Positions 9,608-50,625 of a DNA stretch of 64,000 nt are shown piece by piece. Made by a program: the position numbers and the translations under genes. Where the stretch lies: assembly GCA_964649665.1 (NCBI GenBank), contig CAZYPU010000001.1:16428-80427 (forward strand), read 5' to 3'. This stretch comes from an uncultured Planctomycetia bacterium. Its GTDB lineage: Bacteria > Omnitrophota > Gorgyraeia > JABMRN01 > RBG-13-46-9. Position 1 is the first letter of the stretch. Each line of letters opens with the position of its first letter. Below the pieces are notes generated by a model. That model made no database searches. It saw only the letters and a list, made by a program, of their open reading frames with translations, and was not told the origin of the DNA.

Positions 9608-9994
9608 ATGGGCATACAAAAGTTTACGGTAGAGACCTCGAAGAAAGAAGAATTTATTGACATAACCGCAGAGGTCCGTGATGCGCTGCGAAAACTGAAG
9701 CGCCGGGACGCCATTTGCACCGTATTTACGCCGCACACAACAGCGGCAATTACGATAAATGAGAACGCCGACCCCAGTGTGGCGCGCGACATGCTGCAGG
9801 GCCTGCGAAAAATGGTCCCTGAAACAGGGCACCATCATGCGGAAGGCAATTCCCCAGCCCACATTAAATCAAGTATTATAGGCTGTTCCGAGCAGATCCC
9901 GGTTGAAAACGGCGACTTGGCGCTCGGAACCTGGCAGGGCATATATTTTTGCGAATTCGACGGACCCCGAGAGCGCAGCGTATTTGTAAAATAA
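9608..9994 (+). CDS. YjbQ/UPF0047 family protein (secondary thiamine-phosphate synthase-like)
   Basis: Conserved TTAAITINENADPSV, HHAEGNSPAHIKSS and LGTWQGIYFCEFDGPRERSV blocks. Confidence 0.85.
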   Translation: MGIQKFTVETSKKEEFIDITAEVRDALRKLKRRDAICTVFTPHTTAAITINENADPSVARDMLQGLRKMVPETGHHHAEGNSPAHIKSSIIGCSEQIPVENGDLALGTWQGIYFCEFDGPRERSVFVK

Positions 9995-32656: not shown

Positions 32657-32848
32657 ATGGGTAAAACTTTAAGTATTGCAATGGGCGCTCTGGCAGCGTT
32701 CGTAGGGCTCGTCCTTCTCATAGCCTGGTGGTATGAATTTCTTTTTATGCTGAGAGCCGCTGTTCCGGTCCTGCTTATAGCCGGCGGACTTATCGCGCTT
32801 TTTGCCGGGTTCAGCGAGTTCAGGGATACGCTGAAAAGCCGGAAATAG
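32657..32848 (+). CDS. Small two-TM membrane protein
   Basis: 63 aa ORF with upstream purine-rich RBS-like sequence (AAGGCGGGG). Two hydrophobic helices. Confidence 0.4.
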   Translation: MGKTLSIAMGALAAFVGLVLLIAWWYEFLFMLRAAVPVLLIAGGLIALFAGFSEFRDTLKSRK

Positions 32849-37578: not shown

Positions 37579-37615
37579 TCCTGTGACACGCCGAAGCCGT
37601 GGATATGCTATATTA
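37579..37615 (+). promoter_or_regulatory. Conserved bipartite upstream motif TCCTGTGACAC-N15-ATGCTATATTA (extended -10 TGcTATATT), shared with the second giant gene
   Basis: Identical motif halves and identical 15 nt spacing are found at 50589-50625, upstream of the 3897-aa ORF. Confidence 0.55.
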
Positions 37616-37681: not shown

Positions 37682-40600
37682 ATGGGTCAAAATAAAAGCA
37701 TAATATTTAAGGCTATATGTTTCTCCCTTGTAATCACGTTTTGCTTTGAGAACATTCTCTGGGCGAACCCGGAAGCTTTTAAAAAGAATGTCTCAAATGG
37801 CACCCTTCAGGTCCAGTCCAAAATTAACCCCATCGCCACTCCTGAGCTTCTTCATCAGGGGCTTATAGAGTTCTCGCTTAGATACATCGTTCAGGCCGTA
37901 GATGATATCGCGAACATCAATTTCCCCCTAACGCCGGAGGCCCCGCATTACGCCAAAGACATAAAAATCGTCCTTGATTTCAGCCCGCCGACTGAAAATA
38001 AAAAAGAGGGTAAACATAAAGAAGGCGACAACTGGATAGTGCCCTGCACTATTTTTGACAGCCGCGGCCGCTATTTCTGGACGTACGAGGCGGTTATACA
38101 TCCGGATAAAAGTATCTCGTGGAAGAAAAAGATATCCGCGGAATCCGCCATCGTTCCCGAACCCCAACCCCCCGCGCCTCCGGTCGAAGAACCAACCCTA
38201 GCCCCGCAGGCTTCAAGGCCCTTACCTAACCCAAGTGCCTTCCGGGATTTACACCGTAGCGAGGAGGGTGCGCGGTGGCCGTTCGGAAAACGTCAACTCG
38301 CAACCCAAGACCCGAGAAGAGATTCGGACAGGGTGGAACATGCCCTTGGGAAAACGAGGCAAAGATATGAATTAACACAGGTTATGGATAGAATCGTGCA
38401 GGGCGTAAAAGAAAAATTCGGATCAGGATTCGTATTAGCCATAGACGGGCAAAAAGCAACACGCAAAACGACACTTTCAGAAATAATGTCAAAAGGCATT
38501 AGCGATATATCGTCCGGAGACATAGAAGTGCTTAGTTACACAAAAGGTATGTATGAACGGGAAAGAGATTATATGAGAGTTGTCAAAAGGGCCTTACGCG
38601 AGAAGAAGTTAGTTGTTTGCGAGGGGCAGAGCATGGTGCAGATTCTGGAAGAAGGAAACATCTTTCCGGATTTAATCCTTTACCATAAAGCCAACTTAAT
38701 GACGCAATTATATTCCAGTTTTCTTAGGTCCTTTTTATTATCAAAGGCTTACAGGGAACGTATGTTAGATGACGAGAAAAAAGGCCTTTCATTATTGTTG
38801 ACGCTTTGCGATTGGGCGCCGTTCGGACTAATATTCTTTATATGGGAAGTTTATAAAATATTCACAGAAAAAAAATCCGATAAGGAAACGCTTAATGAGT
38901 TGTCAAAAAGGCCTAACTGCGTTACGCTGAATTTCAGTACTTATAAGTTGGGCGGATTAACAATAGAAGATGTATATGGAATCATGACAAGCGTGGCAGA
39001 TTCGGCTAGTTATCCGTCCGTTGCCACAGTCGAACATGGTCTGATAAGCGAGGTCCCGGGTGCGCCTCTTACAGCCGAGGATTACGTCAGGCAAAAAGAA
39101 AAAGAGGGAGCTGAATTTATTCTCCTCTACAGCAGGGAAGGGCGCCTGGTGCGTTGCATGTCGATAAAAGAAGCCAAATACGCCGCCGGAAATATGGAGA
39201 TAGCGGGTATTGCCCTGAGAATCAAGGAGGGAGAGACACAGTTCTTTGAGGCTGGCCGAACCGACTTTGAGACCGGGAAAATCGTAGAGTCGCTGGACTA
39301 CACCGCGGAGATGAAAGAGCCGAAAAAGGTCTATTTCGTAGTACCGATGCACAAGGAAATGAAGCGGCTCCTTCCGGAAACGAAAGACAACCCTTATGGC
39401 GAGGACGCGTTGCGGAAAACGGTATGGCAGCTTCAGGAAGGAAGCAGAATAAACAGGCGTTTCAAATGGCAGCTTATCCTGGTAGATGACGGCACTCCCG
39501 GAAACGCCTCAGCAAAGCTTGCGGAAAAACTTTGGGCCGAAATTCAGGAAGAATATGCGTCCTGGGGAGAAACGCTTGATCCATCGCAGGTTATAATCGA
39601 AAAAATTACGCCTCGGGAAAAAAAGAAAATGAAAAGCCGAAAGGGAGGCGCCGTTCTCCGCGGGTTTAATATTGCCCTGAAAAGCGCATCGCCCGGCGAT
39701 TACATAGGATATACGGACCTGGACATCTCAACCGATATGCGCCAGACAGGGTTTCTATTAAAAGCGCTGGCCGAAGGTGATGCGGAGGTGGCCATAGGTT
39801 CCCGCTGGGCAAAAGGCGGAAAGGGAGAAAAAGTCCCTCCTTCAGGCATAGTATCAAGCAAGGTCTACAACCTTTTGGTCCAAACACTTATGCCGCCTTT
39901 ACGCGGTATTCAGGATACGCAGCGCAGCTTCAAGCTTTTTACAAAGCGCGCGGCAGAAGAAATCTTACGTCACGCCAAAGATAACGGCTTTGCCTTTGAC
40001 ACGGAGCTCCTGCTTTTGGCGAAGCTCTTGAGTTATCGGACAAGTGAGGTCCCAATCGCCTGGATTGATTCGCCCGGGGCCACTACTCTGAGCATGTTTA
40101 CCGACGGGCCAAAGATGGTTTGGAGCCTGTTTAGACAGCGCAGACACATGTTCGGGAAGATGTTCCGCTCCTCGTACATCATGACCCGGTCAGGCGCCAC
40201 AAGCGGTTCCGGCGAAGGGGAACGTCCCCTTGGGCTTATCGGGAAGTGGATGCTGACGCCGGAAGCTAAATTTAAAGAGGACCACCCGGGATGCCGCGCC
40301 GGGGATATAACGTTCATGGCCAGGCGCATAGATTATCCCGAGAGGGATGAGATTGAGATAAAGCTTCGGGCGAGGTGCGTGCCGTTCACGGAGTTTGATA
40401 ATTTCCGGAGGACAGGTGTGGAGGAAATCGATAGCGCGCTGAAAGAATTCCTCTACGCTTTCACATCACTTAAGGTCAAAGGCGTGACGCTTTACATGGA
40501 ACCCAACCGGTACGGCATATACGGCATAGGCACAAAGGACATTATTGCCGTAAGAGGCCCTCTCAGGTTCAGTAAAATTGCCAAAACCCATGAAATAATG

Positions 40601-43600
40601 CATGCGGCCCTTGACGCGGGCGCGCTGACCCTCAAAACAGTGATAGACAACATAAAAGGCGGCGAAAAGGCGCTGAATGAATATATAGGAAAAAATCCGC
40701 GCAGGCAGGTGCCCGGCATGCGGGCTCATTATGCCCTCCGCCTTCTTTTTAGGCAGAGAAATCCAATAAGAGACAAACTTCTTACGAGGTTTTTAAAAAT
40801 TATCCAGCCCGTAAGGGATTTTCTTGACATCCGGCTGTTCGGCGGCTTGAGCTTAGCAGGGCGTGCGGGAATCCTGGCGGTATTCGCGTATGTCCTTGAG
40901 AGTTACGTAGGAACAAATCGATGGCTTTTGCTCTCGGTCATCGCGGTATCTTCGATTATATTAGTGGATGTATGGTATTCTTTATGGGAAAAATGGGAAA
41001 AAACCGGTGAACTTATAAACGGTCTCTTGGGCACGCGAAAAGGGCACGAAACTTTAACGGCAGAAGTAAACGAGATCGTGTTTGATCGGTATCCGGGACG
41101 ACGGTGGATTCCTGGTAATGTGAAAGAAGCGTTGAAGCTTGATGATCCATCGGCGGATACGACATACATAATAGCGAGTTTTAAAAAGAGTAATGTTCCC
41201 ATTGGGTACCTCGCCTTTACGGCCAAATCAACAGACGCGGCGATTACATGCGTGAATCTTTGGATTAATGAAAAACACCGGCACAAGGGTATAGCCCTGA
41301 AGCTATTGGAAAGATTTTTGGAGGAGGCGGAACGCAGGCAGAAAAAAAGCGCAATATTTAGATTGAAAAAAAACGAGGGCATCAATCTGGATGTCGTAAC
41401 AGGGCTTCTGAAGGCCGCCGCGGCTTTGCGGGGAGCGAGGATTGCGATTGTCCCAACAAGTTACGGTCGGCTGATACGCATATGGTTGTATAAATCAAGG
41501 CCGCGGACGCAACTTCTTTCAGCGGCGCTGCCTTTGTCCCTACTGGCCATAGAAGCCGCGAAGGAAGAGCCGATTATCATAAAGCCGTGGATGGAGGCCG
41601 CGTTTATGGCAGGTTTTGCTTTTCTATGCTTGTGTGAAATTATCCGGAAGTATTGGGATGCGATCAAAGAAAACAGGGCGGTTGGATACGCGATTGAAAG
41701 ATTCGCCAATTTGATCAAATGGCTTGATGACTTTTTACCGATCGTATTTTTAGCCGCTATTTTGAGCTTTGTGCCGTGTCCGAAAGTAAGTCCATCCGCG
41801 CATGCCGCCATGGTGACACAACCGCCCGCCGCGGCGGGGGTTGTTAATACCTTGCCAGTTGCAGCGCAAGTAGGCGCGGCCGATATTTCGTCAACGCTGC
41901 TAGACTTCATATCGACACCTGTGTCAATCGGGTTAATGATAGGACTGATTTTTGCTATCTTATGCATGATGTACAGAAAAGTGGCGGCCGCTCTGTTTAA
42001 CAACACGTGCGTATATATAAAAGAGATGCTGGGAGATAAGTATATTAGGTTCTGGGCGCGTTTTCAGGAAGACCGCGAGGCGCTCGAACGGCTTTTTGCA
42101 GAGTCAAGAAAGACCGCGCAGAAATATTCGTCATCGCCGCAAGATAGCGTGGAATTTTATGCCATAGAATGTTACCTTATAGCGCGTCGGAAGGGCAAAG
42201 TCAAGTATATACACTTTTCACAAGAACTGGCCAAAGCGTTTCGTAGAGATCGTCGATTTATCGGGCGGTCTATCGCATGGTACAGATTCAGGGTGCGACT
42301 TAAGTCCCTTTGGGCGCGGATATTGCTTAAAGGTGAAGGATTGGCCGGCGACGGGCTCGAGGATCTGCAAAAAAGTATAAGATACTGCGAATCATTATTA
42401 AGGTTGGACACGTTGATTTACAAAAATAGGGAACAATACGCACGGCAAATATTCGACGCAATAATTAATAACCCCGAGCGTTTCCCGGGCATCAAAGAAG
42501 TTCCCGATCCGGATGATCCCGGAACGCACATGTTGGTGTACGAATCTCCGAATAGTTCCGGCGTAAGAAATCCCAAAGACGGTTTTATAAAACCGCTTTT
42601 AATACCCACTTTAACCGGTATCGCCGCGCCGGCGGCGGGGGCGGTATTAGCGGCTCCCTACTTTGCGGAAATTCCCACATATATTAGTGACATTTTAAAC
42701 TGGTTTGCCTCTATCGGCGCGGGTGGCGCACTTTCGTGGAAGACAATAGCTATATTAGTTACCTTTGTCCCGCTTTTCATTTCCATCGTATCCGCTGTTA
42801 AAGGGGAATCGTTGTCAGGAAAATACCGGGGTATCTGGCGGGAAAGGCTTGAAAAAGCCCTGAGGAAGCACTCGAAACTTAACAAAGACGGCGTAATTCC
42901 GGATCTCGCGACACTTTTGAGTATCCGACACAAATTATTTAGATCAGAAAGAGCAAGCGGCAGTCTTTTGGCAATTTTGCAGGCATATCAAGATTTGCTA
43001 TCCGGCGGAATTATCAAAAAACCGAAATTCGCGCCTTTACACATTTTCGTCCTTCGTGACTTGGGTTTCGTCACTGACGAATTGTGGGCGGAATATGAAG
43101 TGTATATAACCTCAAAGAACAATGATGAAATCAGTGAACCACGGATAAAACTGTGGCATTCTTTGGTGCGGGCGGTTCTTAAAAAAGAAGATATGCTGGG
43201 TAAAGACGGAACTATCGACGATGTAAAAAAGCTGGAGGGCATCAAACCGGACTTCTTTACATCCAGAAAAGGGCGGGCTGGAATCAACGAGGTATACGAA
43301 GCCTTTCAGCGCGCGGCCAAAAAGAAAAACATTCCATATAGGTACGCGCACAAAAGAAAATTCGTATTATATGTGCTTAGGATTCTGGGTTTTTTGACGG
43401 ATGAGATGTGTGGGATAGTCGAGAATATTGATTTCACATTTCCATCGGACAAATTAAAGAAAAAATACCACGCCGCATTGGCGCCGGTGTTACGAAAAAA
43501 GGATATTTTGAACGAGAAGGGGAAAGTGCGGGACATTGATGCTCTTTTACGTGTCAACGTTAAATTATTCCGGGCGCGTAAGGAAGAAGGGAAGGGCGTC

Positions 43601-46600
43601 AGTTTATACAGTATTTTTATTAGCTATCAGAAAAAAGCGAGACTCAGCAGGATAAAGAAGCCGAAGCACGCGACATGGCCTTGCTTTATCCTGTATAGTT
43701 TGGGGTTCGTAACTGATGAAGTATGGAAAGGTTATTTATCCTACCGCAGGAAATTACTGCTAAAAAGAGAGACACGGGCTGCTGAAAGGCAATCTAAACC
43801 GGTGCCCTTTCCCGCTTCATTCAATGTAACGCAGGCGCAGTTATCGGGTGTCCGAAAAGCGCTCGAAAAAATACACGTCCTTGACGAAAAAGGCATGATA
43901 AAATCGCTCGGCGCATTTGATAGTATAACCAGGCAGTCAATTGTTGAAGGCGGAGGCGGCCCCGCGTACGGCATTTTTAAATCAGGCATACAAAGGACAG
44001 AGCAGGCGCTGCCCGGAGGAACGGACTTGTGTCACTATATGCTTTATCACCTGGGCTTTGTAAGCGAGGCTGTGTGGCTGGAATACACACAATATCTGAA
44101 GATAAAAGAAGCGCTGAAAAAAGTCAACATGCTCAACCGCCGGGGCAAAATCCGCGATATCACCGCTCTTCTACGCGTAAATGCAACGTTTTTAAGCAAT
44201 CAGGGCATCTTAGGCGTATACCTATCCTACGTAAGAGCGCATTATGAGTTTAAGCGGGATACGCCTAAAGGCATAAAATTACACTATTACGCGCTATATC
44301 GCCTCGGGTTAGTTACCGAAGAATTATTGCGCGAATACAAATGGTATATCCGGCTGGAGAAGGCGTTACGGACAAGGTTAAAACTTGACCAAAACGGGAA
44401 AATTCGCGACCACGCGACCCTTTTAAGCATAAATACGAATTTCCTTGAAAAAGAAGGCCTTTTGGAAGGATACAGGCTTTATATGGAAGCCCATCCCGAA
44501 CTTGCCAAAGAAACACCCGAAGGCACGGAACCCCATCATTACCTTCTACGCCATTTAGGGTTATTTGCCAAGGCGCTATTCACGCAGGAGAGCGAGGGAT
44601 ACGCACAGCTTAAAAACGCGCTTAAGGAGAGCGAAAAGCTTACCCCCGAAGGCGAAGTCCGCGACCTCAAGGCTCTTTTAAGCATAAACATAGAGTTTTT
44701 CGAAAAGAAAAAAGTTCTTGAAGCCTATCAATCCTGTCTGAAAACCGTCGCCGAAGAATTACCGGAAGGCGCAGAGGGCTGTCATTACGTCTTATACAGT
44801 TTAGGGCTTGTTTCGGGCAACCTCTGGACCGAATACACATGGTACTGCCGCCTGAAAAAGGCGCTCAAAGGCGCCGGGAAGCTCAGCCCCGAAGGCATTA
44901 TTAAAAACCTCACCAGCCTGCGCGGCATAGACTACGCATTTTTTAATGAGCATGGCATTGTGAGAATATCGCAATTCTATACACGCCGGTATCCCGGATT
45001 CTGGAGAGGGATTCCGCGCGGCGCGGATGGGTGGCGCTATCTTTTATACAATCTCGGGTTCGTTGACGATGAGTTGTGGCAAAACTATCTATGGTATGCG
45101 AAGATAAGCGTCACGCTTAAAGCGGCCGGAAAACTCGATAAGCAGGGAGCAATCAGGGACATAAACACCCTTTCAAACATCGGCGCAGCGTTTTTTAAAG
45201 AACACGACATCTCGGGCATATACCAGGCATATTTAGAAGAAAACCCTGATTTTATTCAAAGCGTGCCGGAAGGGGTGGAACCGCGGCATTATTTTTTGTT
45301 TATTTTAGATTTCATGCCGGACAAATTCTTGCGCGAATACAAATGCTGCAGCGAGATGAAAAGAGCGTTAGAAAAAGCCGGAAAACTGAATAAGGCAGGG
45401 GAGATTCCCGATTTGGCGACGCTGCTCGGCATGAATAAAAAATTCTTCTCTGAAATTGGCGCATTACCTGCATACGAGGCATACCTTGAGTTTTACCCCG
45501 AGCTTGAGCATCATGCGCCTGAGAAGGAGTCCGCGGAGTGCGATGCGCTTCACCGGATGGGGTTTGTTTCAAAAGAGCTCTATCAGAAATACATGCTGCA
45601 CCTCAAGGTAAAACAAATTTTGAAAAACTCCGGAAAACTCGACAAAACGGGTAAATTCCGAGATATAGACAGCTTCTTGAGCGTAAACTCTGGTTTCTTA
45701 AGGGAACATAAAATCTTAAACAGTGCCGACGCTTTTTTCAGGAAAAACCCGGAACTGATGAAGAAAATGCTCGCCACTGCGGACATATCCCACTGTTTCC
45801 TGTATTGTTTAGGTCTTGTTTCCGAAGAACTTTGGAATAAGTACGAAACGCGTTGCCCGTTCAAAGCGGTGCTGTGGAAAGAAAGGCTCCTTGATTCGCA
45901 CAGAAGAATTCGCGATTATGACGCACTGTTTAGTATAAACGCCGCGTTTTTGAAGAAGCACGGACTGCTAAGCTTATATCAATCTTACGTACAAGAGCAT
46001 CCGGGTTTTGCTGAAAAACTGCCGGAGGGAGCGAATCCGCGACACTATTTCCTGTACCGGATGTACCGGATGGGGCTTGTGTCTGACGAGGTATGGAACG
46101 GATACATAAAGTGCGTGACCACGCCGGAGTTTCTTAAGCTAAACGACGAGAAGCGAATGTGGTATGTTACACGCCGCTATTGTCTTGAGGCCGCGCGGAT
46201 AATAAGGCCGGGAGAGATTATACAGGAGGCCGCGATCCTCTTAAACATAAGGGAACCGGTTTTTCGCCGCAAAAAAACAAAAGAGACGTGGCGTGAAGCG
46301 ACGAGATATTACAGCAGGCAATGGGAAGAAGGGCTATTGGGAAAATTTGAGCTCGAAAACCTTGATATATATATACTAAAGGACCTGGGACTTGCGACAG
46401 CGTCATCATGGGATGAGTATCTTGCCTATTCTGCCCGGGAGAGAGCGGCGCGGATTGAGAAATCCGCTATGACTGCGAGGGGAAGCGTTCTTAACAGAAT
46501 CAAAGGCCTGGCTGTGGATATCCAAAAAGCTATCGAGGAAGGCGATATCGCTTCCGCGGCGGCCGCCCTTGATATGATCGATAAGCTGTGTGAAGGACAT

Positions 46601-49600
46601 GGCGGTAGAATATCGCTTCCGGAGCAAATTAAAATCCTTCTCGACGGATTCAGAGAACAAACCTCTCAAATGATCGACGCGGGAATGCGTGAATTCGCGG
46701 ACGCGCGCCGGGAAATAGAAAAAGGTATATATGCCGCGTATGCCGATTTAGTAAATTTAGTAGACAATATAGACGCTCTTGCCAATCCTCCGGTAGGAGA
46801 GGAGGGGGTAGAAGAAGAAGATCGGGCCACACACGAGCTTTTGATAATCCTTCAGTTTAAGCGGGAGTCTCTCGATAGTTTAAAAACGCTGGAAGATGAC
46901 CTGGAAGTTATCAGGAAAAAAATAACAGAACTGGTCGGCGAATCAGGCAATTTTGAAAATACGCTCGCGGCCCGTGCCGTTATCCAGCTCGAAGAGCTGG
47001 AGGAAGGAATCCCTAAGTTGCCGGCAAAAATTGAAAAATTGTTTAGCCGGTTATTAGGAGAAAACTCTGGAAAAGAAGAAGCGCAAGAACCTATCGAGGA
47101 TATTGAAGTTATTGTAGATATTGAGGTAGAGCCGGGGGCAGCGAAAGGGCCGGACTTAGAAATAGCAGCCGATATAACGATTGAGGAAATGCCGGACGAA
47201 GAGCCGAAAACCACGGAAACTGAAAACATAAAAGAACGAAGATTGGACCTGGAGTTTGCCCGGGACTTATTATCGATGTTTGATAGCGGTGTGCCTGTAA
47301 CCGAAGGTGAAATACAGGACGAGATAGACTATATCGAGTCTAATCTGGAGGCAATAAGAGGGGAGAGCAAAAAGCTGTGGGAGACGGCAAAAATGCTTTT
47401 AGAAAGGCTGAAAAAAGCAAGGTGGATAGTAAGGATAAAAGCCAGGAAGTGCCTCGCTGGAGCCAGGAAAACTACGGAACAACCTTCATCAGAGTTAATA
47501 GCGAGCCGCACTATTGGGGGATTCTTGAGGCAAAATCCTGACAAAACATTGCTCCAGATTATGCCGTTAGTCGTCAGAACCGGGAATTGGGTAGCTGTGG
47601 AAATCGCGATAGGAATGATCAGAGAAGACGAAACACTAAAGCTTAAAAAGGATGACGCGGCCTATTTAGCGGAAATCGAAGCACAACTGCTCAAAGCGCA
47701 AAAAGCACAAAAGGGCGCTAAAAAAACTGCCAAAAGCAAGCCCACCAGAAATCCCAAAGACGGTTTTATAAAACCGCTTTTAATACCCACTTTAACCGGT
47801 ATCGCCGCGCCTGCGGCGGGGGCGGTATTAGCGGCTCCCTACTTGTCGAAATCATTCGGTTTGCCGCTCGTGGCGGGCGTGGCGATAATAGCCATCATCC
47901 TTATTTTGTATTCACGATACAGCAAAGAGATAAAAGCCTTATGGAAAATGACCTGTATCAATTTAGGTGACTTATACGAAGATTTTTCTATTGAGATCAT
48001 GGAGCGCCTTAGAAAAGACCACGAAACATTTAAGTGGCTTTTTGATTATGTCGATGAACTTGTGAAACTTCCGATGTCATTTGAAAACGCCGAGAAATTA
48101 TTCGCGGTAAAATGCTATTTGTTAATTCGTAAAAAAGGTCGTGTTAATTGCGACCGATTTTTGAGAACGTTGACAAGCGCTTTGAGGGACGACATAGAGT
48201 ATTCCAGGCAATCCATAGTCTGGAACAATTCCATGATAGGGCGGAAGAAATTTTGGGTGCATCTTTTACGGCGGAGCGACGATAGTACAACCAAAAGGGA
48301 AATCAGGGACCTTGAATCCGAAATAGAACGCGAAAGAATCTTAAGCGAGATGGAGATAGAGGGGGCGCAAGACATGCTTAATGGTAAGGAAAATTCTGTC
48401 AGGCGGATATTCGACCTGGTATGCGCTAACCCGGATTTTTTTCCGGGAATAAAGAAGATACCCGATTCAAAGAATCCCGAAATAGGGGCGCTTGCGTACA
48501 TGCCGGCGGCGCCGGAAAGCTCGGTCGCTGACATGGGCATTTGTAAACACGTGCTTTTAAGCGTGTCTCCGAGGGAAGAGACAACGCTTGAAAAACAGAC
48601 CCAAGAGGCGCTTTCAAGGGCAAAGAAACTTTTGACGGACATGGGATACAATGAGAGCGCCGTAGTGAAACAAACCGTTTTTTTGAGGAGCGTTTCGGAT
48701 AAGGCAGAATGCAAAGAGATAATCGAAGCGCATTACGACAGGGGCCCGCCTCCGGCCACAAGCTACATAAAGGAACCGCCCGCCGACGGAAGCGATGTTA
48801 CGATTGAGATATTGGCCATAAAAGGCGAAAACACAAATGTCAGAAGAGTAAACGAATTTCTCACCGTTGTAGAACAGGAAAATCTCAAATGGGCCTACGT
48901 CGCCGGCATCGAGCCGGATGAAACGATACCGGATGAAACGATAGAAGATACCTATGAGCAGGCGCTTAATGCTTTCCGGAAAATGAAGGATGTCCTCGAG
49001 GAGAATGGATTCAATTTTGAAGACGTGATACGAACATGGATTTACGAGCGCGATCTTTTAAAGACAGAAAACGGAAGCCAGAGATATCAGCTTTTGAATG
49101 ACGCGAGAAGCGAGTTTTTTAATACAGGGGACAATGGTAAAAAGATACATTTTGGCAGGAATTTCAGGAATTTAATAAGAGACCCGCAATTGAAAGAAGA
49201 GATTCTGCCTCCCGCTTCCACAGGTATTGGCATGTCAGGCGGAACGTTTGTCATGGAATGCCTGGCGCTTTCCACGACGAGAAACGACGTAAGCATCACG
49301 CCTTTGGAAAATCCCGACCAGGTACCCGCGCACAAATACAGCAAAAAAGTGTTGAGAAAAGGAAGGAGCGAAGAGGAAAAAACATCACCCATGTTTTCGC
49401 GGGGGATGGTTGTTAATATCGGCGGTTATAAAATGACTTTGATTTCCGGCACCGCCTCAATAAAGGGCCCTAAAACCGTACACAAAAGAAGTGTTAAAAA
49501 ACAGACAAAAACCACCATAGAAAATATCTTAAGGGTTATAGAGCAGGCGGGTGCGAGCCTGGCGGATATACCACAACTCAGGGTTTACATCAAAAATTCG

Positions 49601-50536
49601 AAACATTATAAAGCGATACGGAAAATCGTGGAAGAAAGATTCCCGGGTAAAGCGTGCGTGTATTTAATAGCTGACGTCTGCCGGGATAATCTCCTCGTGG
49701 AAATCGAGGCAGTGGCGTATACATACCAAAAGCCTGAAGCCGTAACCGAAGAGACGGTTTTGCAAGAGACAGATCCGCCGAAGGAAGCCGCAAGAAGAGA
49801 AGGTAAGAAAGACCGGCCGGCTGATGAACCGCATGAACCGGGCGTACCGGTTGCAGAAACGAAGGGGAGCCCGGAAGACGTAATGCAATTCTTGAGGAAT
49901 CTTCGGATCCCCAAAGAGCTCGCGCAACGTTTTGTGGAAAGCATAACTTCGCGCGCCTTGGGCAAAAAAGAAATTATTCTGGCGTTCGAGGATGCGATAG
50001 GAAGCGGCAGTGATAAAAGCCCCCTCAGCATCTTCGAGGCGTTGAAAAAACTGAGAAAAAACCCCACATTCTGCCTTCTTCTTAAAAACGTTGACGTTGT
50101 TATTGGTTCATCGAATAGTCTTCATAATAAGCTCCAGCGGCATTTCGCAAAACCCGATACGGAGGTATTCCTGTTCGCGAGGGCAGATTCCAGGGAGAGA
50201 TTGAGAGGGGTAGAAGGCAAGCGAGGCGTGCATTCCTTCTACATAAAAGATAAGGGTTTTAACATAAAAGATAAGGATTTTACCAAAAACGCCTATTATC
50301 CCCTTCTGGAGATAGTGACAATTGCCCTAAAACAGCATATTGCTGATTTAGTTTCGGTCAGCGTTGGGCTCGATAAACTAGGCATAGAGCTTGAGCAATT
50401 GGGAATAGAATCGATACTGGAAGAAGAATCCACGGGTGTTTTGGTTTTCACACTTCTGCCTAACGCGAAAGCGCATGACAAACAAGCCCTTATCAAGCGA
50501 TACGCCGACTTAAAGCGCTTCATCCGCTCTGCGTAG
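37682..50536 (+). CDS. Giant multi-domain membrane-associated protein (4284 aa): GT2, GNAT, ~13 novel ~80-aa repeats and tandem RidA-like domains
   Basis: Single uninterrupted 12.9 kb ORF. N-terminal signal-anchor homologous to that of the next giant ORF (ILWANP versus ISWAYP). Domain calls are listed as separate features. Confidence 0.85.
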   Translation: MGQNKSIIFKAICFSLVITFCFENILWANPEAFKKNVSNGTLQVQSKINPIATPELLHQGLIEFSLRYIVQAVDDIANINFPLTPEAPHYAKDIKIVLDFSPPTENKKEGKHKEGDNWIVPCTIFDSRGRYFWTYEAVIHPDKSISWKKKISAESAIVPEPQPPAPPVEEPTLAPQASRPLPNPSAFRDLHRSEEGARWPFGKRQLATQDPRRDSDRVEHALGKTRQRYELTQVMDRIVQGVKEKFGSGFVLAIDGQKATRKTTLSEIMSKGISDISSGDIEVLSYTKGMYERERDYMRVVKRALREKKLVVCEGQSMVQILEEGNIFPDLILYHKANLMTQLYSSFLRSFLLSKAYRERMLDDEKKGLSLLLTLCDWAPFGLIFFIWEVYKIFTEKKSDKETLNELSKRPNCVTLNFSTYKLGGLTIEDVYGIMTSVADSASYPSVATVEHGLISEVPGAPLTAEDYVRQKEKEGAEFILLYSREGRLVRCMSIKEAKYAAGNMEIAGIALRIKEGETQFFEAGRTDFETGKIVESLDYTAEMKEPKKVYFVVPMHKEMKRLLPETKDNPYGEDALRKTVWQLQEGSRINRRFKWQLILVDDGTPGNASAKLAEKLWAEIQEEYASWGETLDPSQVIIEKITPREKKKMKSRKGGAVLRGFNIALKSASPGDYIGYTDLDISTDMRQTGFLLKALAEGDAEVAIGSRWAKGGKGEKVPPSGIVSSKVYNLLVQTLMPPLRGIQDTQRSFKLFTKRAAEEILRHAKDNGFAFDTELLLLAKLLSYRTSEVPIAWIDSPGATTLSMFTDGPKMVWSLFRQRRHMFGKMFRSSYIMTRSGATSGSGEGERPLGLIGKWMLTPEAKFKEDHPGCRAGDITFMARRIDYPERDEIEIKLRARCVPFTEFDNFRRTGVEEIDSALKEFLYAFTSLKVKGVTLYMEPNRYGIYGIGTKDIIAVRGPLRFSKIAKTHEIMHAALDAGALTLKTVIDNIKGGEKALNEYIGKNPRRQVPGMRAHYALRLLFRQRNPIRDKLLTRFLKIIQPVRDFLDIRLFGGLSLAGRAGILAVFAYVLESYVGTNRWLLLSVIAVSSIILVDVWYSLWEKWEKTGELINGLLGTRKGHETLTAEVNEIVFDRYPGRRWIPGNVKEALKLDDPSADTTYIIASFKKSNVPIGYLAFTAKSTDAAITCVNLWINEKHRHKGIALKLLERFLEEAERRQKKSAIFRLKKNEGINLDVVTGLLKAAAALRGARIAIVPTSYGRLIRIWLYKSRPRTQLLSAALPLSLLAIEAAKEEPIIIKPWMEAAFMAGFAFLCLCEIIRKYWDAIKENRAVGYAIERFANLIKWLDDFLPIVFLAAILSFVPCPKVSPSAHAAMVTQPPAAAGVVNTLPVAAQVGAADISSTLLDFISTPVSIGLMIGLIFAILCMMYRKVAAALFNNTCVYIKEMLGDKYIRFWARFQEDREALERLFAESRKTAQKYSSSPQDSVEFYAIECYLIARRKGKVKYIHFSQELAKAFRRDRRFIGRSIAWYRFRVRLKSLWARILLKGEGLAGDGLEDLQKSIRYCESLLRLDTLIYKNREQYARQIFDAIINNPERFPGIKEVPDPDDPGTHMLVYESPNSSGVRNPKDGFIKPLLIPTLTGIAAPAAGAVLAAPYFAEIPTYISDILNWFASIGAGGALSWKTIAILVTFVPLFISIVSAVKGESLSGKYRGIWRERLEKALRKHSKLNKDGVIPDLATLLSIRHKLFRSERASGSLLAILQAYQDLLSGGIIKKPKFAPLHIFVLRDLGFVTDELWAEYEVYITSKNNDEISEPRIKLWHSLVRAVLKKEDMLGKDGTIDDVKKLEGIKPDFFTSRKGRAGINEVYEAFQRAAKKKNIPYRYAHKRKFVLYVLRILGFLTDEMCGIVENIDFTFPSDKLKKKYHAALAPVLRKKDILNEKGKVRDIDALLRVNVKLFRARKEEGKGVSLYSIFISYQKKARLSRIKKPKHATWPCFILYSLGFVTDEVWKGYLSYRRKLLLKRETRAAERQSKPVPFPASFNVTQAQLSGVRKALEKIHVLDEKGMIKSLGAFDSITRQSIVEGGGGPAYGIFKSGIQRTEQALPGGTDLCHYMLYHLGFVSEAVWLEYTQYLKIKEALKKVNMLNRRGKIRDITALLRVNATFLSNQGILGVYLSYVRAHYEFKRDTPKGIKLHYYALYRLGLVTEELLREYKWYIRLEKALRTRLKLDQNGKIRDHATLLSINTNFLEKEGLLEGYRLYMEAHPELAKETPEGTEPHHYLLRHLGLFAKALFTQESEGYAQLKNALKESEKLTPEGEVRDLKALLSINIEFFEKKKVLEAYQSCLKTVAEELPEGAEGCHYVLYSLGLVSGNLWTEYTWYCRLKKALKGAGKLSPEGIIKNLTSLRGIDYAFFNEHGIVRISQFYTRRYPGFWRGIPRGADGWRYLLYNLGFVDDELWQNYLWYAKISVTLKAAGKLDKQGAIRDINTLSNIGAAFFKEHDISGIYQAYLEENPDFIQSVPEGVEPRHYFLFILDFMPDKFLREYKCCSEMKRALEKAGKLNKAGEIPDLATLLGMNKKFFSEIGALPAYEAYLEFYPELEHHAPEKESAECDALHRMGFVSKELYQKYMLHLKVKQILKNSGKLDKTGKFRDIDSFLSVNSGFLREHKILNSADAFFRKNPELMKKMLATADISHCFLYCLGLVSEELWNKYETRCPFKAVLWKERLLDSHRRIRDYDALFSINAAFLKKHGLLSLYQSYVQEHPGFAEKLPEGANPRHYFLYRMYRMGLVSDEVWNGYIKCVTTPEFLKLNDEKRMWYVTRRYCLEAARIIRPGEIIQEAAILLNIREPVFRRKKTKETWREATRYYSRQWEEGLLGKFELENLDIYILKDLGLATASSWDEYLAYSARERAARIEKSAMTARGSVLNRIKGLAVDIQKAIEEGDIASAAAALDMIDKLCEGHGGRISLPEQIKILLDGFREQTSQMIDAGMREFADARREIEKGIYAAYADLVNLVDNIDALANPPVGEEGVEEEDRATHELLIILQFKRESLDSLKTLEDDLEVIRKKITELVGESGNFENTLAARAVIQLEELEEGIPKLPAKIEKLFSRLLGENSGKEEAQEPIEDIEVIVDIEVEPGAAKGPDLEIAADITIEEMPDEEPKTTETENIKERRLDLEFARDLLSMFDSGVPVTEGEIQDEIDYIESNLEAIRGESKKLWETAKMLLERLKKARWIVRIKARKCLAGARKTTEQPSSELIASRTIGGFLRQNPDKTLLQIMPLVVRTGNWVAVEIAIGMIREDETLKLKKDDAAYLAEIEAQLLKAQKAQKGAKKTAKSKPTRNPKDGFIKPLLIPTLTGIAAPAAGAVLAAPYLSKSFGLPLVAGVAIIAIILILYSRYSKEIKALWKMTCINLGDLYEDFSIEIMERLRKDHETFKWLFDYVDELVKLPMSFENAEKLFAVKCYLLIRKKGRVNCDRFLRTLTSALRDDIEYSRQSIVWNNSMIGRKKFWVHLLRRSDDSTTKREIRDLESEIERERILSEMEIEGAQDMLNGKENSVRRIFDLVCANPDFFPGIKKIPDSKNPEIGALAYMPAAPESSVADMGICKHVLLSVSPREETTLEKQTQEALSRAKKLLTDMGYNESAVVKQTVFLRSVSDKAECKEIIEAHYDRGPPPATSYIKEPPADGSDVTIEILAIKGENTNVRRVNEFLTVVEQENLKWAYVAGIEPDETIPDETIEDTYEQALNAFRKMKDVLEENGFNFEDVIRTWIYERDLLKTENGSQRYQLLNDARSEFFNTGDNGKKIHFGRNFRNLIRDPQLKEEILPPASTGIGMSGGTFVMECLALSTTRNDVSITPLENPDQVPAHKYSKKVLRKGRSEEEKTSPMFSRGMVVNIGGYKMTLISGTASIKGPKTVHKRSVKKQTKTTIENILRVIEQAGASLADIPQLRVYIKNSKHYKAIRKIVEERFPGKACVYLIADVCRDNLLVEIEAVAYTYQKPEAVTEETVLQETDPPKEAARREGKKDRPADEPHEPGVPVAETKGSPEDVMQFLRNLRIPKELAQRFVESITSRALGKKEIILAFEDAIGSGSDKSPLSIFEALKKLRKNPTFCLLLKNVDVVIGSSNSLHNKLQRHFAKPDTEVFLFARADSRERLRGVEGKRGVHSFYIKDKGFNIKDKDFTKNAYYPLLEIVTIALKQHIADLVSVSVGLDKLGIELEQLGIESILEEESTGVLVFTLLPNAKAHDKQALIKRYADLKRFIRSA
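39329..40150 (+). other. Domain: family 2 glycosyltransferase (DPM1-like polyprenol-phosphate glycosyltransferase)
   Basis: YFVVPMHKE ... LVDDGTPGNAS ... YTDLDIS (DxD) ... QRSFKLFTK. Confidence 0.7.
41150..41345 (+). other. Domain: GNAT N-acetyltransferase
   Basis: IGYLAF...VNLWINEKHRHKGIALKLLERFLEEA (motif A, R-x-x-G-x-A-type). Confidence 0.55.
43040..46430 (+). repeat. Intragenic array of ~13 divergent tandem repeats of ~75-85 aa (K-A-L-x-K-x-G-x-I-R-D-x-x-x-L-L-x-I-N ... P-E-G-x-E-x-x-H-Y-x-L-Y-x-L-G-[FL]-V-[ST]-[DE]-E-x-W-x-x-Y)
   Basis: Recurrent LGFVTDELW, LGFVSEAVW, LGLVTEELL and LGLVSEELW units read in the translation. No known family recognised. Confidence 0.7.
48533..48826 (+). 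other. Domain: RidA/YjgF/L-PSP-like (first copy)
   Basis: AVVKQTVFLRSVSDKAECKEIIEAHYD..PPATSYIKEPPADGSDVTIEILAI. Confidence 0.55.
49394..49722 (+). other. Domain: RidA/YjgF/L-PSP-like (second copy)
   Basis: LISGTASIKGP..TIENILRVIEQAGASLADIPQLRVYIKN..HYKAIRKIVEERFPGKACVYLIADVCRDNLLVEIEAVAY. Confidence 0.65.
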
Positions 50537-50588: not shown

Positions 50589-50625
50589 TCCTGTGACACT
50601 TGCCCCACTATTTTATGCTATATTA
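50589..50625 (+). promoter_or_regulatory. Second copy of the TCCTGTGACAC-N15-ATGCTATATTA motif, directly upstream of the 3897-aa giant ORF (ATG 9 nt after TATATT, so likely leaderless)
   Basis: See 37579-37615. Confidence 0.55.

Follow-up and report, generated by a model that had tools for sequence, protein, structure and literature searches.

A gene of 12.9 kb within the 64,000-nt stretch of DNA analyzed here (the window) encodes a giant protein of 4,284 residues, which is a variant of the known long multi-enzyme membrane proteins of Omnitrophota and carries a new domain family. The ~84-aa repeat that founds this family is a previously undescribed, non-catalytic domain. The protein is probably a polytopic inner-membrane protein, with cytoplasmic modules pinned by helical hairpins and the repeat array serving as a scaffold. 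We infer how the protein lies in the membrane, that the array has a scaffold or binding role, and which substrate each enzyme module uses.

The giant ORF is a real gene

37682-50536, + strand: giant ORF, a single uninterrupted frame of 4,284 aa
37580-37615, + strand: candidate promoter element CCTGTGACAC-N16-TGCTATATTA (extended -10 type), 66 nt upstream of the start codon
50634-62327, + strand: second giant ORF of 3,897 aa, with methyltransferases, GNAT, a kinase-like region and HTH/sigma-like pieces

The interval 39329-49722, to which a sequence-only reading of this DNA had assigned the giant protein, corresponds to aa 550-4014 of the 4,284-aa ORF. An identical 4,284-aa protein is recorded by NCBI, JGI and ENA (ENA contig k141_640942, 27,577 bp), and two JGI variants differ by only 1-3 residues. 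Because the same protein was obtained in independent assemblies, the ORF is a real gene and not an assembly or frameshift artefact. The metagenomic origin of the DNA, together with the occurrence in a long ORF of repeats and of a 98-nt near-identical internal direct repeat, might suggest that ordinary genes were fused by assembly or sequencing errors and that the repeats come from a collapsed or chimeric assembly. This is extremely improbable: 12.8 kb are read without a stop in one frame, relatives of comparable length have the same N- and C-terminal domains, and the repeats cannot mis-assemble because they are only 28% identical and invisible at the DNA level. Named relatives of the giant protein belong to Candidatus Omnitrophica and Ca. 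Zapsychrus exili, and every named YchF relative at 57% identity or more is from Omnitrophota.

The bipartite promoter-like motif is present in exactly two copies in the 64-kb window, where none is expected by chance. The second copy (50590-50625) lies ahead of the next giant ORF, which also has a similar N-terminal anchor motif and a similar C-terminus (...RAA). The two giant ORFs were rejected as paralogues, since BLASTP revealed only weak similarity of the N-terminal anchor (E 0.18) and, at the C-terminus, no similarity beyond the alike last dozen residues. The neighbouring genes are ordinary metabolism and transport genes. A 63-aa ORF with a precomputed label as MamI had pointed to a magnetosome context, which was rejected when the label was not reproduced.

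Thirteen copies of an undescribed all-alpha domain form a basic array

42848-46435, + strand: array of 13 copies of the new ~84-aa all-alpha domain, aa 1723-2918 (HMM iteration, AlphaFold)
42848, 43166, 43478, 43850, 44102, 44354 and 44609, + strand: starts of repeat units 1-7
44852, 45104, 45356, 45608, 45860 and 46172, + strand: starts of repeat units 8-13
46436-47746, + strand: acidic region, aa 2919-3355, net charge -23, pI 4.8 (composition)

Iterated HMM searches of the giant protein detected exactly 13 repeat copies over 3.6 kb, with a period of 84 aa in the central copies and per-copy E values of 1e-23 to 1e-31. The consensus and copy number (~13) proposed by the sequence-only reading were right; the array it described is present, but its true start is ~60 residues earlier. 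The mean pairwise identity among the 13 copies was 28%. Tandem Repeats Finder detected no tandem repeat in the DNA of the array and no 252-nt period, so that the duplications are old and a recent DNA-level expansion was rejected.

The repeat had been thought to belong to no recognised family, and this was confirmed in Pfam, NCBIfam, PDB sequences and PDB/BFVD folds. TPR, HEAT, Sel1 and ARM models of Pfam matched neither the array nor any of 55 individual units, and a TPR, HEAT or Sel1 relationship was likewise absent at the level of the fold. Foldseek searches against PDB/BFVD gave best E values of 2.2 (one unit) and 0.48 (three units) with TM scores ≤0.32. The repeat resembles TPR, HEAT, ARM, Sel1 and mTERF in forming a tandem all-alpha array whose helices are continuous between units, and like those scaffolds it plausibly serves in binding. 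In contrast with their 30-45-aa helical pairs, however, the unit here is 84 aa long with seven helices and a small hairpin, it occurs singly in some relatives, and its Foldseek TM scores to ARM, HEAT and TPR structures were ≤0.21.

The AlphaFold model of a single unit reached a pLDDT of 97.3 and a pTM of 0.86; that of three units, with a pLDDT of 85, had one continuous helix (residues 84-102) joining two units. Conserved columns were nearly all hydrophobic, aromatic, Gly or Pro, and no catalytic-type invariant residue was found among the repeat columns. The array is basic (net +45, pI 9.4), with 4 of the 13 units acidic and two more roughly neutral. The acidic region that follows, for which Pfam and NCBIfam gave no family match, is assumed from its composition to be helical or coiled-coil.

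When 1.84 billion representative proteins were searched with the profile, only 23 matched the repeat family, most of them very long; 79 domain copies were counted across 21 proteins. Both members with an organism name (n=2) are from Omnitrophota. The most conserved peptide, DLGF[VI][TS][DP][EDK][LM]W, was present in one species representative of a genome-collection scan, Ca. Zapsychrus exili. The repeat co-occurs in its relatives with HTH_3, HTH_19, HTH_8, HATPase_c and sigma-like regions.

A borderline GT2-like domain and a GNAT domain precede the array

39323-40147, + strand: GT2 (GT-A) glycosyltransferase-like domain, DPM1/AglJ-like, aa ~548-822 (PF00535, TIGR04182, 5MLZ)
41099-41356, + strand: GNAT acetyltransferase domain, aa ~1140-1225 (PF00583; RHKGIA)

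The GT2 domain of the sequence-only reading is borderline, falling just short of the superfamily model and well short of the equivalog models. PF00535 scored 22.5 bits against a gathering score of 23.3, TIGR04182 (AglJ) 32 bits (E 6e-8) against a cut-off of 325, and NF041391 18.5 bits against 375. In its favour, the domain matched the Pyrococcus dolichol-phosphate mannose synthase 5MLZ (E 2.5e-6, 30 bits) with the DxD in register, TDLDIS (D679, D681) being aligned with MDADLQ of the P. furiosus enzyme, and VDDG could be read at aa 601-604. As in DPM1, AglJ and GtrB, a GT-A domain with an aligned DxD is associated with the membrane and has a hairpin downstream, but the module here is very divergent, under the Pfam gathering score, and ~220 residues away from the next membrane helices.

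The GNAT assignment stands. PF00583 passed its gathering score of 20.7 with 25.1 bits for the sub-window and with 22.5 bits for the full-length protein. The GNAT pyrophosphate-binding motif for acetyl-CoA is R/Q-x-x-G-x-G/A, and RHKGIA was read at aa ~1200-1205, within the PF00583-matched stretch. The enzyme domains did not collapse in the HMM searches.

The C-terminal YjgF/RidA-fold region resembles a Hyg5-type chorismatase

48554-49720, + strand: YjgF/RidA-fold region, aa ~3625-4013 (PF01042, PF21168, TIGR04444, 5AG3, 5A3K, 4BPS)

The C-terminal region had been read as tandem RidA domains with a deaminase fold. The YjgF/RidA fold was recovered (PF01042, 112.8 bits against a gathering score of 27.3, over three stretches), but the region is better read as a Hyg5-type chorismatase-like module, with a RidA-like stretch (aa 3636-3713) and a chorismatase-like core (aa ~3753-4013). 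RidA-type matches were obtained for the N-terminal stretch. The best solved relatives were the chorismatases Hyg5 (5AG3, E 2.4e-19, aa 3843-4013) and FkbO (4BPS). TIGR04444 (FkbO/Hyg5) scored 103.4 bits against a cut-off of 325, with profile positions 144-310 of 311 aligned, and PF21168, the N-terminal chorismatase domain model, was under threshold (23.8 bits against 27). The chorismatase match is confined to the C-terminal half of the TIGR04444 family model, and the N-terminal half of the module is barely recognisable.

Functional RidA proteins have a conserved active-site arginine, Arg105 in E. coli RidA, which we take to be the P-A-R arginine of PH0854 (RidA family). In HMMER alignments, this arginine was opposite Thr for the N-terminal stretch and opposite Tyr for the C-terminal one, and Hyg5 also has Tyr there. 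The deaminase call is thus not sustained, and the residues of a Hyg5-type enzyme are found instead. The signature Gly, Gly and Cys of CH-Hyg5/CH-II enzymes are G164/G231/C318 of Nat-hyg5 and G173/G240/C327 of Hyg5, in which Glu-334 is catalytic (PMC7170507). G3848 (STGIG), G3923 (SGTAS) and C4000 (DVCR) aligned with G173, G240 and C327, and E4007 in LLVEIEAV aligned with E334 in LLVEIEGV, whereas FkbO has Ala at both positions aligned with G3923 and C4000.

The region shares the SGTAS and DVCRxxLLVEIE motifs with the Hyg5 chorismatase/3-hydroxybenzoate synthase (CH-II, EC 4.1.3.45; 5AG3). The known Hyg5 and FkbO enzymes are free ~340-aa proteins of actinobacterial or proteobacterial natural-product clusters, whereas the module here lies within a membrane giant, close to the C-terminus, and has an additional RidA-like stretch ahead of it.

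Bookend domains, duplicated modules and direct repeats frame the chain

37682-38191, + strand: N-terminal signal/anchor helix (aa 7-25) and 'bookend' domain (aa ~1-170) (hydropathy peak, homology)
49859-50533, + strand: C-terminal 'bookend' domain, aa 4060-4284, ending ...RFIRSA (jackhmmer)
41972-42556, + strand: helical module A, aa 1431-1625 (BLASTP)
47915-48511, + strand: helical module B, aa 3412-3610 (BLASTP against module A)
42566-42670, + strand: copy A of the direct repeat; it codes for RNPKDGFIKPLLIPTLTGIAAPAAGAVLAAPY, overlapping helix 1 of the aa 1639-1706 hairpin
47747-47851, + strand: direct repeat copy B, which leads into the transmembrane hairpin aa 3366-3409

The N-terminal bookend region is common to the very long proteins P0015, P0012, P0024, P0004 and P0016, and the C-terminal one was found in the same five proteins by jackhmmer (E 1e-52 to 1e-77); of these proteins, one carries the name Omnitrophica. 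Neither domain has a Pfam match. Modules A and B share 28% identity over 195 aa (BLASTP, E 3e-25), and by this similarity module A appears as an old internal duplicate of module B; module A has no Pfam match. The direct repeat spans 105 nt (96% identity) and includes a core of 98 nt in which the copies differ by 1 synonymous mismatch; they are 5181 nt (1727 codons) apart, in frame. RNPKDGF...AAPY occurs twice, beside the duplicated ~195-aa modules. Two further segments, aa 200-560 (with a degenerate P-loop-like stretch, AIDGQKATRKTT) and aa 851-1060 (containing HEIMH), gave no PDB sequence match and only noise in Pfam/NCBIfam.

Positive-inside counts favour a cytoplasmic location of the array

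40841-40984, + strand: predicted transmembrane hairpin, aa 1054-1072 and 1083-1101 (Kyte-Doolittle peaks, flanking K/R)
41510-41962, + strand: cluster of predicted transmembrane helices, aa ~1277-1427 (hydropathy, K/R counts)

Hydropathy analysis predicted 11 candidate membrane helices, ~1 per 390 residues. NDP-sugars, acetyl-CoA and chorismate, the substrates of the three enzyme types, are cytoplasmic. At both of the hairpins between which the array lies (aa 1639-1706 and 3366-3409), K/R residues are concentrated on the outer flanks, and because of these positive-inside counts we favour a cytoplasmic location of the array. The helices at aa 1639-1657 and 3366-3384 are Ala/Pro-rich and weakly hydrophobic; should they fail to cross the membrane, either the array or the C-terminal enzymes would lie outside instead. 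The topology was assigned from a hydropathy window and the positive-inside rule only, and membrane predictions for giant Omnitrophota proteins come with a warning that they are unreliable (10.1101/2023.11.21.568195).

Discussion

Long Omnitrophota proteins are mostly mosaics with a signal peptide and membrane helices, or with membrane helices only, and contain many enzyme domains, GNAT and methyltransferase being among the commonest (10.64898/2026.06.07.730766; 10.1101/2023.11.21.568195). The protein described here is from the same phylum as the 'multi-enzyme metabolic cluster' class (Nielsen and Lui, 2026) and 'Archaeovorin' (West-Roberts et al., 2023). Like them it has a signal peptide and many membrane helices, is a mosaic of unrelated enzymes (GT and GNAT, with methyltransferases in the adjacent ORF), lacks a close homologue over its length and has old, diverged internal repeats. 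It differs in length, 4.3 kaa against catalogues of at least 10 kaa or above 30 kaa, and Pfam found no SecA-DEAD, C39/S8 peptidase, dockerin, TSP3, glycoside hydrolase or NUDIX domain. Its mixture of domains and the frequency of its membrane helices (topology by hydropathy) fit the multi-enzyme class, but its length does not. What it has in common with Archaeovorin is limited to the phylum, to membrane helices and to the presence of GT, methyltransferase and acetyltransferase domains; the gene is 12.9 kb long against more than 90 kb, and Pfam found no SecA-DEAD, glycosyl hydrolase, peptidase or NUDIX domain in it. Unlike in 'tandem-repeat scaffolds' (TSP3, NHL, HEAT, WD, TPR), the dominant repeat is an unannotated domain.

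We propose that the N-terminal signal/anchor and the small conserved N-terminal domain probably face outward, and that the remaining chain would consist of cytoplasmic modules stitched to the membrane by helical hairpins. These would be, in order, (i) a DPM1/AglJ-like polyprenyl-phosphate glycosyltransferase; (ii) a GNAT acetyltransferase; (iii) the 1,200-residue basic array of 13 copies of the new non-catalytic seven-helix domain; (iv) the acidic region, assumed to be helical; (v) a Hyg5-type chorismatase-like module, whose predicted reaction turns chorismate into 3-hydroxybenzoate and pyruvate; and (vi) the conserved C-terminal domain, common to very long proteins probably of the same phylum. 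The array may serve as a semi-rigid scaffold for binding, anchored at either end by a membrane hairpin, since in the model the last helix of a unit continues into the first helix of the next, and would be neither an enzyme nor an external stalk.

The four-part inventory of the sequence-only reading (a GT2-like domain, a GNAT domain, ~13 novel repeats and a YjgF/RidA-fold C-terminal region) was correct, but its joint interpretation of these parts was not supported. It had suggested a self-contained modification line tethered to a long repeat stalk; nothing ties the three enzymes into one pathway, and published long proteins of Omnitrophota are as a rule mosaics of unrelated enzymes. An extracellular stalk displaying GT2, GNAT and deaminase activities on glycans or small molecules at the cell surface would be akin to the role in prey contact that has been proposed for giant Omnitrophota proteins, most domains of which were predicted to be extracellular, with prey adhesion and cell-wall attack as suggested functions (West-Roberts et al., 2023; 10.1101/2023.11.21.568195). 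The signal-like N-terminal helix, the many membrane segments and the extended, helix-linked three-unit model would also suit it. We nevertheless regard a stalk as unlikely, given that both array ends lie on the K/R-rich side, that all three enzyme types use cytoplasmic substrates, that the repeat relatives are rich in HTH, HATPase_c and sigma-like domains, which are cytoplasmic types, that the deaminase call fails at the RidA-arginine-aligned position, and that Pfam found no adhesin, dockerin, lectin or hydrolase domain in the giant protein. Cleavage of a polyprotein into separate enzymes and a free repeat protein, with the linker and membrane-helix elements marking the cuts, is very unlikely. 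Module boundaries do recur, as where RNPKDGF...AAPY flanks the duplicated modules, an HExxH motif is present (HEIMH, aa ~981-985), and self-cleavage by N-terminal peptidase domains has been raised as a possibility (10.1101/2023.11.21.568195); however, no peptidase family match was found anywhere in the giant protein with Pfam and NCBIfam, or with PDB for aa 851-1060, and HExxH is short and frequent by chance.

It is doubtful, though conceivable, that the repeat binds nucleic acids or RNA polymerase/sigma, the basic array tethering DNA, RNA or the transcription machinery to the membrane. The charge of the array, followed by an acidic region, is consistent with such a role, and the last two helices of the unit (HYxLYxLG-[FL]VS-DELW) look helix-turn-helix-like by eye. 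At least 8 relatives have a conserved ~250-aa region directly after the last repeat, whose profile reads as ECF sigma region 2 followed by sigma-70 region 4; 10 of its 12 weak PDB matches were sigma factors, but these sigma-like matches were individually insignificant (E 0.1-0.8). Pfam Sigma70_r4 reached E 0.008 in repeat relatives, others carry arrays of XRE or Fis-type HTH, and the neighbouring giant ORF has HTH_8, Sigma70_r4 and RNA_pol_A_CTD matches. Against this, Foldseek returned no HTH, winged-helix or other DNA-binding fold among matches no better than E 2.2 and TM 0.32, the units that are acidic or roughly neutral do not fit, and the conserved residues are core hydrophobics rather than surface basic residues. 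Because the repeat directly precedes a divergent ECF-like sigma region in smaller relatives, one may go further and picture a transcription or nucleic-acid module, so far confined to Omnitrophota, whose array tethers machinery to the membrane and whose 98-nt direct repeats form a recombination switch. This is a long shot; if true, recombination at the in-frame 98-nt direct repeats would delete or regain the array as a 5,181-nt block.

The long proteins of Omnitrophota are known to be puzzling, and large parts of their sequence lack annotation. With the cytoplasmic scaffold as our preferred reading of the array, the findings refine current views of giant proteins, overturn none of them and offer testable handles. 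A Hyg5-type chorismatase, normally a free natural-product enzyme, inside a giant provides an assayable predicted activity, chorismate to 3-hydroxybenzoate, and the conserved pair of N- and C-terminal domains marks a sub-family of giant Omnitrophota-type proteins. The locus defines one recurring unannotated piece of such proteins, a compact, confidently modelled and extremely rare domain. It has so far been seen only in proteins named as, or resembling, Omnitrophota, where it is present as a single copy, within small sigma-like proteins and in arrays with as many as 13 copies. Its registration as a new family could help in the annotation of other giants.

Giant ORF 1 is an intact gene among ordinary chromosomal genes

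The sequence-only reading placed its giant ORF at coordinates that correspond to aa 550–4014 of a longer reading frame, here giant ORF 1, which has a second giant ORF downstream.

37682–50536, + strand: giant ORF 1, a single ORF of 4,284 codons
50634–62327, + strand: giant ORF 2, 3,897 codons, starting 98 nt past giant ORF 1

The exact giant ORF 1 protein is present in NCBI, JGI and ENA records (the ENA contig is 27.6 kb long), and two JGI variants carry 1–3 residue changes; giant ORF 1 is therefore a real ORF rather than an artefact of assembly. The surrounding genes are ordinary chromosomal ones (GH65 phosphorylase, ribonucleotide reductase, YchF, Mur ligase, transporters and hydrolases), and the named homologues of the window YchF with at least 57% identity are all Candidatus Omnitrophota. 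No tRNA or Rfam family was found across the window. At its left end (52–4992) lies another long ORF, of 1,646 aa and without any Pfam match, which has no exact copy in the protein collection, possibly owing to a differing start call.

32657–32848: 63-aa ORF with two predicted membrane helices, labelled PF26391 (the magnetosome protein MamI) in a precomputed Pfam annotation

The MamI label was not reproduced with a local Pfam copy, no further magnetosome genes were found nearby, and the assignment was rejected.

37580–37615 and 50590–50625: bipartite motif CCTGTGACAC-N16-TGCTATATTA, upstream of giant ORFs 1 and 2

There are exactly two copies of this motif in the 64 kb window, where none is expected by chance: one 66 nt before giant ORF 1, the other 8 nt before giant ORF 2. 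Its TGCTATATT portion resembles an extended −10 element, and GTGACAC forms a 7-bp palindrome. Upstream of a relative's gene in another genome (locus L003, ~9905–9935) we found TTGTGC-N17-TATAAT, with TGC abutting TATAAT.

The array consists of 13 copies of a domain absent from the libraries searched

Iterated HMM searches seeded with one unit converged on exactly 13 copies of an ~84-aa domain at aa 1723–2918 (nt 42848–46435), with E-values of 1e-23 to 1e-31 per copy. Spacing is close to 84 aa for the eight central copies, and mean pairwise identity is 28%. Tandem Repeats Finder detected no DNA-level tandem repeat in the array, which makes these old duplications. With the array and 55 individual units as queries, no consistent family was found in Pfam-A and no match in NCBIfam, and the repeat profile had no match below E 0.5 among PDB sequences.

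An AlphaFold2 model of a single unit, built from a 55-sequence alignment, has seven helices and a tiny hairpin (pLDDT 97.3, pTM 0.86). The best Foldseek hits of this model were at E 2.2 in PDB (TM ≤0.32) and E 1.5 in BFVD. In a three-unit model (pLDDT 85, pTM 0.61) the last helix of a unit runs unbroken into the first helix of the next; its best PDB hit was at E 0.48 (TM ≤0.21), and no similarity to ARM, HEAT or TPR was found. Conserved alignment columns hold L, I, F, Y, W, G and P and a single Asp/Asn, a pattern typical of a structural or binding domain rather than an enzyme. The array is basic (net charge +45), and the next 437 residues are acidic (net −23).

42566–42670 and 47747–47851: direct repeat copies inside giant ORF 1, 105 nt, 96% identity, sharp bounds

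The 98-nt core of the direct repeat contains one mismatch, which is synonymous, and the adjacent ~195-aa helical modules are only 28% identical, so that the direct repeat looks like a recent gene conversion. The 13-repeat array lies between the copies, together with a membrane helix and the acidic region. The copies are 5,181 nt (1,727 codons) apart, hence in frame, and recombination across them would delete the array precisely.

The repeat family is small and occurs mostly in long proteins

Of 1.84 billion representative proteins searched exhaustively with the repeat profile, only 23 matched at E ≤1e-3, most of them 1,000–7,300 aa long. We counted 79 domain copies in 21 proteins; arrays reach 13, 12 and 11 copies, and five proteins have a single copy. 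Members with an organism name come from Ca. Zapsychrus exili (Omnitrophota) and one Candidatus Omnitrophica MAG, and the most conserved repeat peptide pattern matched 1 of 185,579 species-representative genomes.

Repeat-bearing relatives also carry XRE-type HTH arrays, Fis-type HTH_8, HATPase_c, transglutaminase and ribulose-phosphate epimerase domains. Directly after the last repeat, at least eight of them (P0006, P0010, P0011, P0013, P0014, P0017, P0018 and P0021) share a conserved ~250-aa region with the motifs GNxAAYxxLMRYW, RIKWD, RRK and SRVSQI. Its profile gave weak collinear matches to ECF sigma region 2 and sigma-70 region 4, and sigma factors made up 10 of the 12 PDB matches (E 0.1–0.8, individually insignificant); the region resembles a highly divergent sigma factor of ECF type. 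The company of HTH and sigma-like regions is informative as an association and is no proof of function.

Terminal bookends and giant ORF 2

37682–38191, + strand: N-terminal bookend domain (first ~150 aa), no Pfam match
49859–50533, + strand: C-terminal bookend domain (last ~220 aa), no Pfam match

Giant ORF 1 shares these bookends with five very long proteins (P0004, P0012, P0015, P0016 and P0024), one of which is named Candidatus Omnitrophica; the middles of the six are otherwise unrelated. Giant ORF 2 has two methyltransferase domains, a GNAT domain and a protein-kinase-like region, with weak matches to HTH_8, HTH_30, Sigma70_r4, RNA_pol_A_CTD and mTERF. It was rejected as a paralogue of giant ORF 1. 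The two share an N-terminal anchor motif (a hydrophobic helix, then I/L-x-W-A-x-P, then TL..Q), and the giant ORF 2 C-terminus, ...LRTLLRAA, is similar to that of giant ORF 1. An [S/A/R]-A C-terminal end was observed in 12 of 25 proteins examined, both giant ORFs included, and may mark these proteins for sorting or processing.

The C-terminal module is chorismatase-like

The initial observation stands, and its domain inventory (GT2, GNAT, repeats and a RidA-fold region) is correct. The GT2 region scores 22.5 bits with PF00535, slightly below the gathering score of 23.3, and matches NCBIfam AglJ (E 6e-8); among solved structures it matched only the dolichol-phosphate mannose synthase of P. furiosus (E 2.5e-6), in an alignment that keeps the DxD in register. 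We read it as a putative divergent DPM1/AglJ-like GT-A domain. GNAT (PF00583) is above threshold and retains the acetyl-CoA motif RHKGIA.

aa 3636–3713: separate RidA-like stretch, N-terminal to the chorismatase-like core

PF01042 scores 112.8 bits in the C-terminal region, spread over three stretches. The best solved relatives of aa 3843–4013 are the chorismatases Hyg5 (5AG3, 2.4e-19; 5A3K, the C327S mutant) and FkbO, and the NCBIfam FkbO/Hyg5 model, whose cut-off is 325 bits, scored 103 bits and aligned through its C-terminal half only. The CH-Hyg5 signature is Gly, Gly, Cys (164/231/318 in Nat-hyg5, offset by 9 from Hyg5), and Hyg5 Glu-334 is the essential acid (PMC7170507). Signature and acid align with G3848, G3923, C4000 and E4007 of giant ORF 1; FkbO carries Ala in place of the last two signature residues. 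In PH0854, a RidA-family protein, the P-A-R arginine (taken here as the active-site arginine of RidA) aligns with Thr of the first RidA-like stretch and Tyr of the second. The deaminase proposed by the sequence-only reading is thus not borne out: with the Hyg5 residues kept and the arginine position replaced in both stretches, the module is, as judged from these alignments, chorismatase-like and not deaminase-like, full family membership not being established.

Two motifs lie in regions without family or PDB match: HEIMH, an HExxH motif (aa 981–985; ~40622–40636), and a degenerate P-loop-like stretch, AIDGQKATRKTT (aa ~252–263; ~38435–38470). Both may have arisen by chance, or may be remnants of former peptidase and kinase modules.

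Membrane hairpins would hold the modules on the cytoplasmic side

Hydropathy gave 11 candidate membrane helices in giant ORF 1. The hairpins at aa 1639–1706 and 3366–3409 have 3–5 K/R on their outer flanks versus 0–1 in the loop, and that at aa 1054–1101 shows the same tendency more weakly (flanks 3 and 2, loop 1), which fits helical hairpins pinning cytoplasmic modules to the membrane. By this simple rule, only aa ~26–368, the conserved N-terminal domain and a Pro-rich linker, would lie outside, and GT2, GNAT, the array, the acidic region and the chorismatase-like module would be cytoplasmic. GT2, GNAT and chorismatase-type modules need cytoplasmic substrates, in agreement with this placement. 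The hairpin flanks thus speak against the array as a stalk, and a single pathway joining the enzyme modules, also proposed earlier, is unsupported. Membrane predictions are shaky for giant Omnitrophota proteins (West-Roberts et al., 10.1101/2023.11.21.568195).

The Omnitrophota proteins of 10–147 kaa are membrane-threaded enzyme mosaics or repeat scaffolds, mostly sequence singletons with diverged internal repeats, and GNAT and methyltransferase are among their commonest domains (10.1101/2023.11.21.568195; 10.64898/2026.06.07.730766). Giant ORFs 1 and 2 have the same design as these giants of West-Roberts et al. and Nielsen & Lui, but are smaller; new here are the repeat domain, the terminal bookends and the embedded Hyg5-type module. 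With moderate confidence, we regard giant ORF 1 as a cytoplasmic multi-enzyme protein stitched to the membrane, whose non-catalytic scaffold comprises 13 units of a new domain family.
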